From IMG/VR virus record IMGVR_UViG_2534682307_000021: 5,665 bases of DNA. One strand, given 5' to 3'. Made by a program: the position numbers and the translations under genes. This stretch comes from a virus. Lineage: Duplodnaviria; Heunggongvirae; Uroviricota; Caudoviricetes. The notes under the pieces were generated by a model that saw nothing but the letters and a program-made list of their open reading frames with translations, had not been told where the DNA came from and ran no database searches. Below are positions 1 through 5,665 of the stretch, piece after piece; within the stretch, counting starts at the first letter, position 1, and the number at the start of each line of letters is the position of its first letter.

Positions 1-58
1 AGTCGATCACCCTGGACACCGCCCCCCGTCTCATTCGTAGAAAATTTTGCTTTTCAAA

Positions 59-80
59 AAAGTTACACGAAAAGTTACAC
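59..80 (+). promoter_or_regulatory. Two direct 10-bp iterons AAAGTTACAC (59-68, 71-80) directly upstream of the terS-like gene; candidate operator or TerS/pac recognition element
   Basis: Exact 10-bp direct repeat with 12-bp start-to-start spacing, 13 nt upstream of the GAGG RBS (93-96) and ATG 103. The same motif recurs inside the downstream gene at the same 12-bp phase. Confidence 0.4.
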
Positions 81-102
81 CCCCTCAAAACGAGGTTTTT
101 GC

Positions 103-591
103 ATGGCATTAACGACCAAAAAAAAGCGGTTTGCTGATGCGTTATCAAGGGGCGCAAATCCCACGGAAGCCGCTATACATGCGGGATACAGCGAAAAGAC
201 CGCAAGGGTTAAAGGCTGGCAGCTATCCAACGATCCTGAGGTGAAAAAGTATCTTAAGGCTGTAACTTCTGATGTAACTTTTCAGGTTACAAAACCGAAA
301 AAAGTTACAAAGAAAGTTACCGAAAAAGTTACACCGGAACGGGCATCAATTAACACCATTGAGATGATGGATAACGGCCTACCCGACCCCATCAAAGCAA
401 TGGGCAGGATACTGATTGACAACATGGACACAGATCCAAAACTGGCTTTAGATGCCGCGTTTAAGCTGGCCCAGTTCACCCACCGCAAGATCGGCAGCAT
501 TGGGAAAAAAGAGGTTAAAAAACTCAATGCCGCTAGTGTCTACTCAAATCGGTTCCCCATCCCTAAGCCACCAACAGACTTAAAACACTGA
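103..591 (+). CDS. Terminase small subunit-like protein (Terminase_2 / phage P27-type N-terminal DNA-binding domain), 162 aa
   Basis: ORF with GAGG RBS 6 nt upstream. N-terminus KKKRFADALSRGANPTEAAIHAGYSEKTARVKGWQLSNDPEVKKYLK fits the conserved TerS HTH pattern (KQxRF..EY...N.T.AAI.AGYS.KTA....LL.N..V..YI) as I recall it. Size is typical for TerS. Not verified by a search. Confidence 0.7.
   Translation: MALTTKKKRFADALSRGANPTEAAIHAGYSEKTARVKGWQLSNDPEVKKYLKAVTSDVTFQVTKPKKVTKKVTEKVTPERASINTIEMMDNGLPDPIKAMGRILIDNMDTDPKLALDAAFKLAQFTHRKIGSIGKKEVKKLNAASVYSNRFPIPKPPTDLKH
262..334 (+). repeat. Array of six GTTAC/GTAAC cores at 12-bp phase inside the terS-like gene (two inverted, four direct; three full AAAGTTAC[A/C] iterons at 301, 313, 325)
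   Basis: Cores at 262, 274 (GTAAC), 286, 304, 316, 328 (GTTAC); spacing 12,12,18,12,12. Encodes a (x-V-T-x)n stretch AVTSDVTFQVTKPKKVTKKVTEKVTPE. Last iteron AAAGTTACACC (325-335) matches the upstream copy at 71-81. Confidence 0.55.
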
Positions 592-602
592 GGTAGCGAA
601 CT

Positions 603-764
603 ATGAGCGAATACATCACAGACCCTATTGATGTACTCACGGAAATCATGAACGACAAGCAGCAGTCGACCGAAATACGGTTACAGGCCGCCGCTGTTCT
701 GATGCCATATTTTCACGAAACACTAAACCCGTGCTTCCAGGAGGAGGAAGAAGATGATCTGTAA
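603..764 (+). CDS. Hypothetical small acidic protein, 53 aa (MSEYITDPIDVLTEIMNDKQQSTEIRLQAAAVLMPYFHETLNPCFQEEEEDDL); not in the supplied ORF track
   Basis: ATG 603 is 9 nt after GAGG (590-593). The ORF is open to TAA 762-764 and overlaps the next gene start (754) by 11 nt, suggesting translational coupling in a terS-X-capsid operon. No family recognised. Confidence 0.4.
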   Translation: MSEYITDPIDVLTEIMNDKQQSTEIRLQAAAVLMPYFHETLNPCFQEEEEDDL

Positions 765-1677
765 AAACATGAAAGGCGTGTCAGCAGTTCGCGCCGCCAG
801 CGTGCTGGCATCGTGTAAATTTAGCCATGCTGACGCTATAGAGATGACGAAAAGAAATGATCCGGCAGTATCGAAATTTCTTGAAAAATCCATCGTCAAC
901 AGAATGACTACGGATAACATGCCGTCGCTGGTGGCAGAGCCGATAGTAAGAGAGCTTGGCGAGTATATTTTTTCGCAGTCTGTACCAGGCAAGCTAATCA
1001 GCAGCGCGCTTAATCTTCCGTTTGGCGCAAAATTGCATTCAATATCAGGCAAGGGTAGTAAATGGCTTAAAGAAGCCGAAGAAATCCCTGTCAAAGAGGG
1101 AGAAGTAAACGAAAGTGCGCTAAAATTGTGCAAACTTGGCGCTATTGTGATGCTGAATAACGAGCTAATCAAATTTAGCACCCCTGGTACAAATTCAGCG
1201 ATCAGAGACTTGATCACATCGGAATCGGTGAAAGAAATAGATAAAAAATTTCTTTCCAGTGATCAGGAGGTGGCTGGCGTATCCCCTGAGGGCGTGCTTA
1301 ATGGTGCTGATGAGGCCGAAAACTTCATAGAGATTTTCAAAAAGCACATAGCGAACGGTAACACGCTTTCCACGTCGTCGCTAATATTGCCCGTAGAAAA
1401 CGCCTTACAGCTTACTGATGCTGAGTTCTGGCAGATAGAGCTTTTGAGAATACCGGTAATTGTGAGCGAACAGGCGGATCGCATGATGCTGATAGACGCT
1501 CAAAAGCTGATTATTAACGTTGAAGCCACGGTTATAACCCCAACTGATGAGGCGGTAATAAAAACCGAATCAGGGGCGGTTAGCCTTTTCCAGAATGACG
1601 CTACAGCGTTCAGGGCAATCACCTATTGCGGATGGCAAAAACTCGATAAGGCCGTCACCGTTCTGGCGAAAAGCTGA
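754..1677 (+). CDS. HK97-fold major capsid protein-like (Phage_capsid family), 307 aa, no N-terminal delta/scaffold domain
   Basis: Strong RBS AGGAGGAGG (739-747) 6 nt before ATG 754; in-frame alternative ATG at 769. Middle segment WLKEAEEIPVKEGEVNESALKLCKLGAIVMLNNELIKF and C-terminus GAVSLFQNDATAFRAITYCGWQKLDKAVTVL follow the conserved layout of HK97-family capsid proteins (compare recalled 80alpha-type YWVGEGQKIE...AFKLGVILPVTKEF and PVNLFEQDMVALRATMHVAL...AFAKL). Recognition from memory, not a search. Confidence 0.6.
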   Translation: MICKNMKGVSAVRAASVLASCKFSHADAIEMTKRNDPAVSKFLEKSIVNRMTTDNMPSLVAEPIVRELGEYIFSQSVPGKLISSALNLPFGAKLHSISGKGSKWLKEAEEIPVKEGEVNESALKLCKLGAIVMLNNELIKFSTPGTNSAIRDLITSESVKEIDKKFLSSDQEVAGVSPEGVLNGADEAENFIEIFKKHIANGNTLSTSSLILPVENALQLTDAEFWQIELLRIPVIVSEQADRMMLIDAQKLIINVEATVITPTDEAVIKTESGAVSLFQNDATAFRAITYCGWQKLDKAVTVLAKS

Positions 1678-1693
1678 TTTTTCCAGCATCTAT

Positions 1694-1719
1694 CCCGATA
1701 TGGGGATCACCATATCGGG
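1694..1719. repeat. Perfect palindrome P1: CCCGATATGG-GGATCA-CCATATCGGG (10-bp arms, 6-bp centre containing GATC)
   Basis: Read directly; the arms are exact reverse complements. Lies 16 nt after the capsid-like gene stop, with no following T-tract, so not a typical intrinsic terminator. Confidence 0.85.
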
Positions 1720-1722
1720 GAA

Positions 1723-1805
1723 GCACCTGAATCATCATTACCGTGATCAAGGGTATGTAAAGCCCACCAGCCTGATTAACGTTTAACCGGAAAAAAAGCC
1801 AGGTA
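1723..1805. repeat. 83-bp direct repeat DR-A, copy 1
   Basis: GCACCTGAATCATCATTACCGTGATCAAGGGTATGTAAAGCCCACCAGCCTGATTAACGTTTAACCGGAAAAAAAGCCAGGTA; 81/83 identical to copy 2 at 2260-2342. Confidence 0.85.
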
Positions 1806-1813
1806 TCCAATCT

Positions 1814-1835
1814 CGATATGGGGATCACCATATCG
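1814..1835. repeat. Palindrome P2: CGATATGG-GGATCA-CCATATCG (second copy of the P1 palindrome, 8-bp arms)
   Basis: Same arms and centre as P1; lies 8 nt after DR-A copy 1. Confidence 0.85.
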
Positions 1836-1899
1836 GGATACGGCGGTAACTGGTTGATATTTTCGAAATTCGCCAGCGGCGAACATCGGGGAAACCAGC

Positions 1900-1918
1900 C
1901 TAACCCGTTGATTCTTCC
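1900..1918. repeat. 19-bp conserved box, copy a (CTAACCCGTTGATTCTTCC)
   Basis: 18/19 identical to copy c and 16/19 to copy b; abuts the hairpin at 1918-1944. Confidence 0.7.
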
Positions 1919-1944
1919 CAATTTCCACAGACTGCGGAAATTGG
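1918..1944. repeat. Inverted repeat / hairpin CCAATTTCC-(9 nt)-GGAAATTGG
   Basis: 9-bp perfect arms with a 9-nt loop, read directly. Confidence 0.75.
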
Positions 1945-2026
1945 CGCGGTAACTTACTGAGATTAAAGCAAAGCGCAAAATTGCGTTGGCTGGTGGGCCT
2001 GATGCCGATAACTGGTTGGAATTGTT

Positions 2027-2050
2027 CCATAGTGCAAAATTGCACTATGG
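2027..2050. repeat. Palindrome CCATAGTGCAA-AA-TTGCACTATGG (11-bp arms)
   Basis: Read directly. Shares the core CAAAATTGC with a weaker palindrome at about 1971-1983 (GCGCAAAATTGCG). Immediately precedes box copy b. Confidence 0.75.
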
Positions 2051-2051
2051 C

Positions 2052-2070
2052 CTAACCCATTGATTATTTC
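2052..2070. repeat. 19-bp conserved box, copy b (CTAACCCATTGATTATTTC)
   Basis: 17/19 identical to copy c; followed by palindrome CCCCCA-T-TGGGGG (2076-2088). Confidence 0.65.
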
Positions 2071-2105
2071 GAAAACCCCCATTGGGGGATGTTGGGAAAG
2101 TAAGA

Positions 2106-2124
2106 CTAACCCATTGATTCTTCC
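2106..2124. repeat. 19-bp conserved box, copy c (CTAACCCATTGATTCTTCC)
   Basis: Followed by palindrome CCTCAA-T-TTGAGG (2130-2142). A further palindrome TGGTCAT-A-ATGACCA lies at 2174-2188. Confidence 0.7.
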
Positions 2125-2259
2125 ACAATCCTCAATTTGAGGAGATCGGAAACATCACCCTTCAAATTCTGAATGGTCATAATGACCACGCAGACCATCA
2201 AGGCAACCACAACGAACATCGTTACGGTTGGAGCTTTTACCCCACTGGGGAAAAGGTAC

Positions 2260-2342
2260 GCACCTGAATCATCATTACCGTGATCAAGGGTATGTAAAGG
2301 CCACCAGCCTGATTAACATTTAACCGGAAAAAAAGCCAGGTA
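2260..2342. repeat. 83-bp direct repeat DR-A, copy 2
   Basis: 81/83 identical to 1723-1805 (mismatches at 1764/2301 and 1781/2318). Followed by a degenerate P copy (2343-2364, GTGGGGATACCCATATCGGGG) and preceded by palindrome CCCCA-C-TGGGG (2241-2251). Confidence 0.85.
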
Positions 2343-2425
2343 GGTGGGGATACCCATATCGGGGAACATCCACCAGCTTCATAACGGATGGCCGGAAAAT
2401 GATAACGGTTAAAGCGTGTTGATCT

Positions 2426-2455
2426 TTGTTCGTGGTTGTTCGATATTGTTCGTGA
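2426..2455. repeat. Three tandem 10-bp iterons TTGTTCG-NNN (TTGTTCGTGG, TTGTTCGATA, TTGTTCGTGA)
   Basis: TTGTTCG at 2426, 2436, 2446 at exact 10-bp (one helical turn) phasing; a weaker copy lies just upstream (about 2416-2424). Confidence 0.7.
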
Positions 2456-2458
2456 AAC

Positions 2459-2482
2459 GGTGTAGTTAATGGTGTAGTTAAT
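2459..2482. repeat. Perfect tandem duplication of 12-mer GGTGTAGTTAAT
   Basis: Two identical adjacent 12-mers, followed by an AT-rich tract (2483-2575) containing palindrome GATAG-TTAT-CTATC (2556-2569). Confidence 0.75.
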
Positions 2483-2655
2483 TTCGCTGTTTTTGACGGA
2501 GTTGTTATTTGTAACATAGTGAAAAATAAAGACTAATCAATGAAATGTTATAAATGATAGTTATCTATCATGTGGAGTAGATTGGTCAGGCAAATAAGCT
2601 CTTGTCAGCGGCAGGGCGTTCTGCCGATAACCGTAACCGAAGATGATAACTGACA

Positions 2656-2976
2656 ATGGGTAAAACGAACGACTGGCTGGACTTTGATCAACTGGCGGAA
2701 GAAAAAGTTCGCGACGCGCTAAAACCGCCATCTATGTATAAAGTGATATTAGTCAATGATGATTACACTCCGATGGAGTTTGTTATTGACGTGTTACAAA
2801 AATTCTTTTCTTATGATGTAGAACGTGCAACGCAATTGATGCTCGCTGTTCACTACCAGGGGAAGGCCATTTGCGGAGTCTTTACCGCCGAGGTTGCAGA
2901 AACCAAAGTGGCGATGGTGAACAAGTACGCGAGGGAGAATGAGCATCCATTGCTGTGTACGCTAGAAAAAGCCTGA
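2656..2976 (+). CDS. clpS: ClpS, ATP-dependent Clp protease adaptor (N-degron recognition), 106 aa
   Basis: Translation [51 protein letters not shown]... matches E. coli ClpS as I recall it; conserved position directly upstream of clpA. Confidence 0.95.
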
Positions 2977-3006
2977 ATGCAGGCATAAAAATTGGGGGAG
3001 GTGCCT

Positions 3007-5283
3007 ATGCTCAATCAAGAACTGGAACTCAGTTTAAATATGGCTTTCGCCAGAGCGCGCGAGCACCGTCATGAGTTTATGACCGTCGAGCACTTGTTAC
3101 TGGCGCTGCTCAGTAACCCATCTGCCCGGGAGGCGCTGGAAGCGTGTTCTGTGGATTTGGTTGCGCTCCGTCAGGAACTGGAAGCCTTTATTGAACAAAC
3201 CACACCCGTTCTGCCTGCCAGTGAAGAGGAGCGCGACACACAGCCGACGCTGAGTTTTCAGCGTGTACTGCAACGTGCGGTCTTCCATGTCCAGTCCTCC
3301 GGTCGCAATGAGGTTACCGGTGCAAACGTTCTGGTCGCTATCTTTAGCGAACAGGAGTCGCAGGCGGCATATCTGTTGCGTAAACATGAAGTCAGCCGTC
3401 TCGATGTGGTGAACTTTATCTCTCATGGCACGCGTAAAGACGAGCCGACACAGTCTTCTGATCCTGGCAGCCAGCCAAACAGCGAAGAACAAGCTGGTGG
3501 GGAGGAACGTATGGAGAATTTCACGACGAACCTGAATCAGCTTGCGCGCGTGGGCGGAATCGACCCACTGATTGGTCGTGAGAAGGAGCTGGAGCGTGCT
3601 ATTCAGGTTCTCTGCCGTCGCCGTAAAAACAACCCGCTGCTAGTGGGGGAATCTGGTGTCGGTAAAACCGCGATTGCAGAAGGTCTTGCCTGGCGAATTG
3701 TTCAGGGCGATGTGCCGGAAGTGATGGCTGACTGTACGATTTACTCTCTCGATATCGGTTCTCTGTTAGCGGGCACAAAATATCGCGGCGACTTTGAAAA
3801 ACGTTTTAAAGCGTTGCTCAAGCAGCTGGAGCAGGACACTAACAGCATCCTGTTTATTGATGAGATCCACACCATTATCGGTGCGGGTGCAGCGTCTGGT
3901 GGTCAGGTTGATGCGGCTAACCTAATCAAACCGTTGCTCTCCAGCGGTAAAATTCGCGTAATTGGTTCGACAACCTATCAGGAGTTCAGCAACATTTTCG
4001 AGAAAGACCGTGCTCTGGCGCGTCGCTTCCAGAAAATTGATATTACTGAACCGTCGATCGAAGAAACTGTTCAAATCATCAATGGCCTGAAACCGAAGTA
4101 TGAAGCACACCACGACGTGCGTTATACCGCAAAAGCGGTGCGTGCGGCGGTAGAGCTGGCGGTGAAATACATTAACGATCGTCATCTGCCGGATAAAGCC
4201 ATTGATGTTATCGACGAAGCGGGCGCTCGCGCACGTCTGATGCCGGTAAGCAAACGCAAGAAAACCGTTAATGTGGCGGATATTGAGTCCGTGGTGGCCC
4301 GTATTGCACGCATTCCAGAGAAGAGTGTTTCTCAGAGTGACCGCGATACCCTGAAAAACCTCGGCGATCGCCTGAAAATGCTGGTCTTCGGTCAGGATAA
4401 AGCCATTGAGGCGCTGACTGAAGCCATTAAGATGGCGCGTGCAGGTTTAGGTCACGAACATAAACCGGTCGGTTCGTTCCTGTTTGCCGGCCCTACCGGG
4501 GTCGGGAAAACAGAGGTGACGGTACAGCTTTCGAAAGCTTTGGGCATTGAGCTTCTGCGCTTTGATATGTCCGAGTATATGGAACGCCATACTGTCAGCC
4601 GTCTTATTGGTGCGCCTCCGGGATACGTTGGTTTTGATCAGGGCGGTTTGCTGACTGATGCGGTCATCAAGCATCCACATGCGGTGCTGCTGCTGGACGA
4701 AATCGAGAAAGCGCACCCGGACGTGTTCAATATTCTGTTGCAGGTGATGGACAACGGTACGCTGACCGATAACAACGGACGCAAAGCGGACTTCCGTAAC
4801 GTGGTACTGGTGATGACCACTAACGCCGGGGTACGGGAAACTGAGCGCAAATCCATTGGTCTTATCCACCAGGATAACAGCACCGATGCGATGGAAGAGA
4901 TCAAGAAGATCTTTACACCGGAATTCCGTAACCGTCTCGACAACATTATCTGGTTCGATCATCTGTCAACTGACGTGATCCATCAGGTGGTGGATAAATT
5001 CATCGTCGAGTTGCAGGTTCAGCTGGATCAGAAAGGTGTTTCTCTGGAAGTGAGCCAGGAAGCGCGTAACTGGCTGGCCGAGAAAGGTTACGACCGGGCA
5101 ATGGGCGCACGTCCGATGGCGCGTGTCATCCAGGACAACCTGAAAAAACCGCTCGCCAACGAACTGCTGTTTGGTTCGCTGGTGGACGGCGGTCAGGTCA
5201 CCGTCGCGCTGGATAAAGAGAAAAATGAGCTGACTTACGGATTCCAGAGTGCACAAAAGCACAAGGCGGAAGCAGCGCATTAA
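3007..5283 (+). CDS. clpA: ClpA, ATP-dependent Clp protease ATP-binding subunit (AAA+ unfoldase, two nucleotide-binding domains), 758 aa
   Basis: Translation from ATG 3007 ([24 protein letters not shown]...) matches E. coli ClpA. Two Walker A motifs ([16 protein letters not shown]). RBS GGGGGAGG at 2994-3001. The ORF-track start at 2992 is rejected because it would place the RBS inside the coding sequence. Confidence 0.95.
3502..3513 (+). promoter_or_regulatory. Internal Shine-Dalgarno (GGAGG 3502-3506) plus in-frame ATG (3511-3513, Met169) within clpA; candidate internal initiation site for the short ClpA isoform
   Basis: SD-like GGAGG 4 nt upstream of an in-frame ATG at codon 169. E. coli clpA is reported to produce a shorter ClpA65 product from an internal start. 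Confidence 0.45.
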
Positions 5284-5307
5284 TCTGATTGTCAGGTAGG
5301 TTGGTGA

Positions 5308-5345
5308 AGTCCGTAATCTCGAAAGAGGTTACGGACTTTTTATTT
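5308..5345 (+). terminator. Rho-independent terminator of clpA
   Basis: 13-bp stem AGTCCGTAATCTC / GAGGTTACGGACT (one G-U pair), GAAA tetraloop, then TTTTATTT; begins 25 nt after the clpA stop. Confidence 0.8.
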
Positions 5346-5497
5346 ATGGGGTGGAACGGTGAAAACCCTATTTTTGGAGGTGAAGGTAATTTGTTGATAA
5401 TTAGTGCTGCTGGAAAAGGTAAGGATAAAAAAGGGTGACAGCAGGAAAATGAGATGGTTTTGCTTTATTAACAACGGGCTAAACGTGTAGTATTTGA
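5346..5497 (+). promoter_or_regulatory. AT-rich putative CRISPR leader
   Basis: AT-rich sequence between the clpA terminator and the first repeat. Possible -35/-10 pair (TTTATT 5464-5469, TAGTAT 5488-5493, 18-bp spacer) is weak and unverified. Confidence 0.35.
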
Positions 5498-5585
5498 GTT
5501 CACTGCCGTACAGGCAGCTTAGAAATTCACTGGTAACATACTCCACCCGCCCACCATGTTCACTGCCGTACAGGCAGATAAAATG
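5498..5585 (+). CRISPR. Orphan type I-F CRISPR mini-array: 28-bp repeat, 32-bp spacer, degenerate terminal repeat; no cas genes in window
   Basis: Repeat 1 (5498-5525) GTTCACTGCCGTACAGGCAGCTTAGAAA matches the E. coli/Yersinia type I-F repeat, including the CTGCC-GTACA-GGCAG Cas6f hairpin. Spacer 5526-5557 TTCACTGGTAACATACTCCACCCGCCCACCAT. Repeat 2 (5558-5585) matches the first 20 nt, then diverges (23/28). Location downstream of clpA fits the known E. coli I-F locus position. Confidence 0.85.
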
Positions 5586-5595
5586 CGAAAAAAAA

Positions 5596-5623
5596 GCCCG
5601 TACTTTCGTACGAGCTCTTCTTT
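5596..5623 (-). terminator. Bidirectional intrinsic terminator, strongest on the minus strand
   Basis: Minus-strand RNA: GCUCGUAC-GAAA-GUACGGGC followed by U8. Plus strand: same stem with one mismatch followed by TCTTCTTT. Implies a minus-strand transcription unit ending at about 5628. Confidence 0.7.
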
Positions 5624-5628
5624 AAATA

Positions 5629-5642
5629 TGGCGGTGAGGGGG
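5629..5642 (-). other. 14-nt match to the 3' end of tRNA-Ser(GGA) (CCCCCTCACCGCCA on the minus strand); not an intact tRNA within the window
   Basis: Plus strand TGGCGGTGAGGGGG equals the reverse complement of the recalled serW/serX 3' end. Sequence then diverges (ACCGCCTGAAATAAA, no T-loop TTCGAA) and instead forms hairpin GGCGGT-GAGGGGG-ACCGCC (5630-5648). Confidence 0.3.
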
Positions 5643-5665
5643 ACCGCCTGAAATAAATCTGACTT

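Follow-up and report, generated by a model that had tools for sequence, protein, structure and literature searches.

The right edge of the window (the whole stretch of 5665 nucleotides analysed here) contains, at positions 5588–5665, what is almost certainly (probability of about 0.96) the junction, on the clpA and integrase side, of a genomic island that belongs to the SRL-PAI/OI-43/OI-48 family and was inserted site-specifically in the 3′ end of the tRNA-Ser(GGA) gene serW. This island has a 14-bp att core that recurs as a direct repeat, and the 14-mer at 5629–5642 is the copy nearer to the integrase. The junction is that of OI-43 and is already known; the window agrees in every respect with the published descriptions. 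A preliminary description of this DNA had proposed an att remnant left by integrase-mediated insertion at serW, and that proposal is borne out by direct repeats, an integrase gene, an intact distal serW and empty sites. The window itself reaches 23 bp into the island; integrase, cargo and far junction were read from matching public genomes.

The window represents the clpS–clpA region of an Escherichia coli O157:H7-type genome, with the clpS ORF at 2656–2976 and the clpA ORF at 2992–5283. Positions 2550–5665 are 99.94% identical to strain EDL933 and positions 2550–5642 are 98.5% identical to K-12. A 381-nt junction probe (5285–5665), which ends with the 23 island bp, finds 100% matches in many E. 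coli O157:H7 genomes, including EDL933, FRIK2455 and CEC13091. The complete 5665 bases are matched at ∼100% only by FRIK2455, FRIK2533, FRIK2069 and SS TX 313-1, and the best match is FRIK2455, with one mismatch in 5665 bases.

Breakpoint in serW and the island beyond it

Read from left to right, the edge of the window consists of gcgaaaaaaaa gcccgtac tttc gtacgagc tcttcttt, which holds the minus-strand terminator, followed by the bases aaata, TGGCGGTGAGGGGG, ACCGCC and tgaaataaatctgactt. The element TGGCGGTGAGGGGG (5629–5642; CCCCCTCACCGCCA on the minus strand) corresponds to the last 14 nt of serW, which is encoded on the minus strand. It is present once in the window, as an exact match, with a chance expectation of 0.02 even when two mismatches are allowed. 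Position 5629 aligns with the last base of the annotated serW of K-12 and the identity lasts for exactly 14 bases; collinearity with K-12 is unbroken from clpA through the terminator and into serW and ends at 5642. In O157:H7 genomes with an empty site, homology to the window likewise ends exactly at 5642. An exact 14-nt match to the 3′ end of tRNA-Ser(GGA), followed by divergence from the tRNA, had been noted in the preliminary description, and alignment with the K-12 clpA–serW–infA region, which is collinear through the terminator and 14 nt into serW, confirms both observations.

The remnant comprises the 3′ strand of the acceptor stem, the encoded CCA and adjoining bases and falls short of a complete cloverleaf. 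ARAGORN found no tRNA in the whole window, in agreement with the presence of only a 14-nt fragment of serW. The first 23 bp of the island (its left terminus, on the integrase side, plus strand) occupy positions 5643–5665, as delimited by the end of empty-site homology at 5642. The breakpoint is therefore written as 5642|5643; strictly, it lies somewhere inside the 14-bp identity, and the true crossover point may be anywhere within 5629–5642. The integrase-proximal repeat has been named ser′W, or cryptic serW (PMC3064760).

Most O157:H7 genomes that carry the left part of the window match it at ∼100% from position 1 to exactly 5642 and then continue into tRNA-Ser; in O157:H7 TX 376-2, a match of ∼100% over 1–5642 is followed by an intact serW and infA. 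Because such empty-site strains match to 5642 and then have an intact serW, the junction represents a precise insertion polymorphism. With a 321-nt probe covering the clpA flank and the island end, at a coverage of at least 80%, the junction was found in 254 of 5426 complete genomes. Many further genomes match only the terminator and island part of this probe (from about probe position 97) at another locus, and these would appear, from their sequence, to be serX-borne copies such as OI-48.

In the matching genomes, EDL933 included, an integrase gene starts 138 bp past the end of the window, in accord with the earlier suggestion that a mobile element begins at the right edge. It encodes a tyrosine recombinase of 400 amino acids with the Pfam domains Arm-DNA-bind_3, Phage_int_M and Phage_integrase, which make it P4-type. 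The integrases of the EDL933 and FRIK2455 islands are identical at 399 of 400 residues, and the island enzyme shares 34% identity with IntA of the K-12 element CP4-57. In both EDL933 and FRIK2455 the 14-bp direct repeat TGGCGGTGAGGGGG is exact at the two island ends; in EDL933, the left and right junctions are identical over the 14-mer only. The right-hand copy, 72.8–87.6 kb to the right of the junction, forms the 3′ end of an intact serW. In EDL933 this is a tRNA-Ser with anticodon GGA (L004 39294–39381, predicted by ARAGORN) that adjoins infA, and in FRIK2455 an intact tRNA-Ser(GGA) is annotated beside infA. Rightward extension in genomes matching the window thus reveals both an intact serW and an integrase-containing element, the two features that the preliminary description had anticipated there.

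Directly downstream of the rebuilt serW is an island-borne minus-strand terminator, consisting of GCGCAUGUUA, a loop, UAACAUGCGC and a U run (EDL933 L004 39247–39293, with the same sequence in FRIK2455 L007 just left of 23424). It would take the place of the terminator at 5588–5623 in the window, which would explain why serW tolerates the loss of its original terminator.

The island cargo differs between the matching genomes. OI-43 of EDL933 measures 87,561 bp and carries ure (urease), ter (tellurite resistance), iha and Ag43-like genes, together with many IS elements and a yeeU/cbtA module. The island of FRIK2455 measures 72,777 bp (1089546–1162323 of the record, L006/L007) and, instead of ure/ter/iha, carries cdiBAI, tet(B), aph(3″)-Ib and aph(6)-Id (strAB) and sul2. 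Its cdiBAI genes are accompanied by several orphan cdiA-CT/cdiI modules, and its tet(B) region lies between two ISVsa5-family IS4-like transposase genes. The two islands share ∼16 kb of end segments at 91–99.5% identity, while their cores differ. FRIK2069, FRIK2455, FRIK2533 and SS TX 313-1 are all listed with these resistance genes (PMC10731853). Judged by sequence matching, an island of the FRIK2455 CDI/resistance type is the best candidate for the sequence that follows the window.

The element in the source strain might be degenerate or truncated, with the 14-mer the dead scar of an ancient insertion that can no longer excise, a state that we regard as improbable. The integrase gene lies outside the window and islands of this group are full of IS elements and pseudogenes. 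Internal island deletions are frequent, and strain 95S cannot excise its island because the upstream junction has been lost (PMC3064760). The upstream repeat is intact in the window, however, and the genomes that match the window have a full-length integrase that differs from that of EDL933 at a single residue. Furthermore, excision of OI-43/OI-48 was observed in every tested strain with both repeats, including EDL933 and Sakai (PMC3064760).

Recombination site and proposed mechanism

The junction of the serW island is spanned by an inverted repeat (5630–5648) that consists of GGCGGT (5630–5635), GAGGGGG (5636–5642) and ACCGCC (5643–5648) and forms a 6-bp stem in the predicted fold. This GGCGGT/ACCGCC hairpin arises from the junction itself, which joins an arm contributed by the tRNA to an arm contributed by the island. 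In reconstructed form, attP has the sequence ...TAATC TGGCGGT GAGGGGG ACCGCC TGAAAT..., with the same arrangement in both island variants, and its 7-bp spacer lies wholly within the attP/attB identity. Core-type sites of tyrosine recombinases generally bracket the overlap region in this way, and GGCGGT and ACCGCC are likely to act as such integrase binding sites, with a 7-bp overlap between them. The reconstructed attP also contains four ATGGCATAC motifs in one orientation, two in each arm, where they form a tandem pair with 12-bp spacing. The pairs are located at L001 8478–8500 at the left end of the island and L004 39217–39239 at the right end, ∼118–130 bp and 65–77 bp from the att core, respectively, and are identical in the EDL933 and FRIK2455 islands. 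These motifs are candidate arm-type integrase binding sites.

A CTGACT hexamer at 5659–5664 (plus strand) could be the −35 element of an integrase promoter, with a TATAAT −10 element 16 bp further on, outside the window. The corresponding promoter-like site in EDL933 (L001 8375–8402) has 10 of 12 matches and points into the integrase gene; the promoter call is weakly supported, since the one site found equals the chance expectation of 1.0. From sequence patterns and comparison, we infer where strands are exchanged, which sequences serve as core sites, arm sites, overlap and integrase promoter, and also the replacement terminator and the placement of the integrase.

In the proposed mechanism, the attP core of the circular island is identical to the last 14 bp of serW, TGGCGGTGAGGGGG, and the P4-family tyrosine integrase would exchange strands inside this 14-bp identity, probably in the 7-bp GAGGGGG segment. 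The enzyme would probably be positioned by the ATGGCATAC arm-type sites in both arms of attP. On integration, the chromosomal 14-bp tRNA end and its terminator would be pushed to the clpA side, which is the view that the window presents, while the island's own 14-bp copy and the island-borne terminator would complete serW on the infA side. The tRNA would thus remain functional. The reverse reaction between the 14-bp repeats excises the island and restores serW, as published for OI-43 (PMC3064760).

The K-12 elements leuX-intB/KpLE2 and ssrA-intA/CP4-57 have an integrase of the same family and domain architecture, and their insertion likewise takes place at the 3′ end of small RNA genes, with duplication of that end. 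The orientation differs. In K-12, the intact leuX (end at 4496489) is immediately followed by intB (start at 4496750), with both genes on one strand, and intA is at the start of CP4-57. In the serW island, by contrast, it is the 14-nt remnant that neighbors the integrase, and the intact serW is found at the other end, which carries yeeU/cbtA/DUF4942. Because the integrase adjoins the remnant, the att core has the opposite polarity relative to int from that in the K-12 islands. Published maps of OI-43/48 already place int beside the cryptic ser′W (PMC3064760).

The orphaned terminator and the junction hairpin

The terminator to the left of the remnant was located by a pattern scan as a rho-independent terminator on the minus strand at 5588–5623, with a 16-pair stem followed by a T run. 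Its GC-rich core corresponds to 5596–5615, with a GAAA loop, and its U8 tail to 5588–5595. The RNA fold has an energy of −20.4 kcal/mol on the minus strand versus −9.3 kcal/mol on the plus strand; the K-12 allele, in which two stem positions are changed, folds with −21.3 and −9.4 kcal/mol, respectively. In the window allele and the K-12 allele alike, full pairing (with one G–U wobble) is achieved only on the minus strand, which indicates that the terminator works on that strand. A 91-nt minus-strand segment has a fold z-score of −5.97 relative to shuffled sequences. The strong minus-strand terminator of the preliminary description therefore stands, with its stem running from 5623 to 5588 into the T run and with a fold that favors the minus strand. 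K-12 has a terminator at the matching position, directly downstream of serW (tRNA-Ser(GGA), minus strand), which is followed by infA. The terminator in the window is the original terminator of serW, now parted from its tRNA gene by the island.

There is a slim chance that this arrangement has acquired a role of its own. The serW terminator and the junction hairpin might have been co-opted, either to form the 3′ end of a minus-strand RNA that exits the integrase end or to insulate the CRISPR4 remnant and clpA against transcription from the island; or else the unusual polarity might make integrase expression independent of read-through from the tRNA promoter and in this way affect the frequency of excision. 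A search for promoter-like sites at the left end of the island found no minus-strand promoter that would feed the orphan terminator.

Slimmer still is the prospect that the junction hairpin and the orphan terminator constitute the 3′ part of a functional minus-strand sRNA or cis-regulatory element. The strong minus-strand fold (z = −5.97) is in keeping with such an RNA, and a permissive Rfam scan returned sub-threshold minus-strand matches to MicC (5579–5665, 33.9 bits, E = 0.0027) and to the Thr leader (24.5 bits). Both scores are far below the gathering scores of 90 and 55 bits, respectively; the MicC alignment rests on the generic terminator stem and U run, and the terminator is fully accounted for as that of serW in the uninterrupted locus. 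We rejected the MicC and Thr leader identities as generic terminator stem and U-run similarity below the gathering scores. At gathering thresholds, only the CRISPR repeat passes in the window.

The alternative offered in the preliminary description, a coincidental resemblance to a tRNA end within an unrelated hairpin, has virtually no standing: the 14-mer does provide one arm and the loop of the 6-bp hairpin GGCGGT-N7-ACCGCC, and ARAGORN reports no tRNA in the window, but the chance expectation is only 0.02 matches, the 14-mer recurs at the far boundary of the island, and the unbroken alignment from clpA through the terminator into serW with K-12 and with empty-site O157:H7 genomes ends after the 14th base, so that collinearity and the flanking direct repeat exclude it.

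Related islands and neighboring features

Membership of the serW island in the SRL-PAI/OI-43/OI-48 family is indicated by a breakpoint within the last 14 bp of serW, by perfect 14-bp repeats (the right copy lying outside the window, in EDL933 and FRIK2455), by a P4-family integrase beside the cryptic tRNA remnant in the matching genomes, by a reconstituted tRNA-Ser(GGA) at the far junction in EDL933 and FRIK2455 and by a presence/absence polymorphism with a precise empty site in TX 376-2. Perfect 14-bp TGGCGGTGAGGGGG repeats that flank OI-43 and OI-48 were reported by Bielaszewska et al. (2011; PMC3064760). According to the same study, these repeats correspond to the final 14 bp of serW/serX and do not differ from those of the Shigella SRL PAI, and the OI-43/OI-48 integrase is 99% identical at the nucleotide level to that of the SRL PAI. 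Complete excision of OI-43 via the repeats, with serW restored, occurred in 1.8 × 10⁻³ of cells (PMC3064760).

The closest counterpart of the window is OI-43 of EDL933, the tellurite-resistance and adherence island, which occupies the same site between clpA and serW/infA and has the same 14-bp repeats and the same integrase; its twin OI-48 in EDL933 sits at serX. EDL933 differs from the window in that it lacks the left 2.5 kb, which belong to a phage satellite upstream of clpS, and the genomes that match the whole window differ from OI-43 in that their island cargo is other than ure/ter/iha. A CDI/SSuT integrative element at serW has also been described (PMC9997748), and an element equivalent to this SSuT/cdi element (O157:H7 CEC13091 and EC869) is present in FRIK2455. 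A 57-kb variant with conserved flanks, PLE804-1, has been reported in FRIK804. The SRL PAI differs in host and cargo (fec, oxa-1, cat, aadA1 and tet) and is usually found at serX. In Sakai, SpLE1 is at serX and serW is intact (PMC3064760). Integration of the SRL PAI by its integrase at serX as well as at serW is credited to Turner (2004) in PMC2297512, and the integrase is described in the SRL PAI literature as required for precise excision (deletion).

The 14-mer is a marker of a serW locus that is occupied by a mobile island. In O157:H7 lineages, the serW island brings one of two sets of functions: urease, the Iha adhesin and tellurite resistance, or contact-dependent inhibition (CDI) toxins together with resistance to streptomycin, sulfonamide and tetracycline. 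Precise excision needs two sites, one of which is the integrase-side repeat in the window, and because the repeat is present and empty-site alleles occur in near-identical strains, the locus is useful as a typing and stability marker. The result confirms and annotates a known feature and leaves current understanding unchallenged.

Between clpA and the serW terminator, the window contains two further features. The rho-independent terminator of clpA (5306–5339, plus strand), with 15 pairs followed by a T run, is located 23 bp past the clpA stop codon. An orphan type I-F CRISPR mini-array at 5498–5585 comprises a perfect 28-nt repeat (5498–5525; Rfam CRISPR-DR4, 50.1 bits), a 32-nt spacer (5526–5557) and a second repeat with a degenerate 3′ end (5558–5585; 29.7 bits). 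K-12 has the same mini-array, with a nearly identical spacer. In a 2016 paper from the Almendros group, the spacers of such orphan arrays reportedly target I-F cas genes. The mini-array corresponds to CRISPR4.1-2 of the clpA–infA 'CRISPR-III' locus (Almendros et al., 2014; PMC3903273).

The left part of the window (1–2570) is the right end of a ∼9.45 kb phage satellite that has inserted at the 3′ end of the small yljB gene, upstream of clpS. Its genes encode an integrase, an Icd-like protein, a primase, a small terminase (103–591) and a capsid-like protein (754–1677), and an imperfect 21-bp direct repeat, ATARATGATAGTTATYTATCA, bounds it on both sides, with the right copy at 2550–2570. The satellite is present in only 47–48 of 5426 complete genomes, and EDL933 and K-12 lack it. 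In strain F8798, the same satellite integrase accompanies other cargo (SSB, ProQ/FinO, PerC and Q antiterminator), and window positions ∼1727–2549 are shared. As the segment 1727–2549 is also found in genomes that lack the capsid module, it was considered as a separate small element, an assignment that we rejected; because F8798 pairs the same integrase with different cargo, the segment is the conserved right arm of the satellite family. The stretch of ∼870 bp from the capsid-like gene to the right att repeat has no annotated genes, and its minus-strand ORFs gave no PHROG matches. Within it lies an 83-bp direct repeat (1723–1805 and 2260–2342), the two copies of which are 97.6% identical and 537 bp apart.
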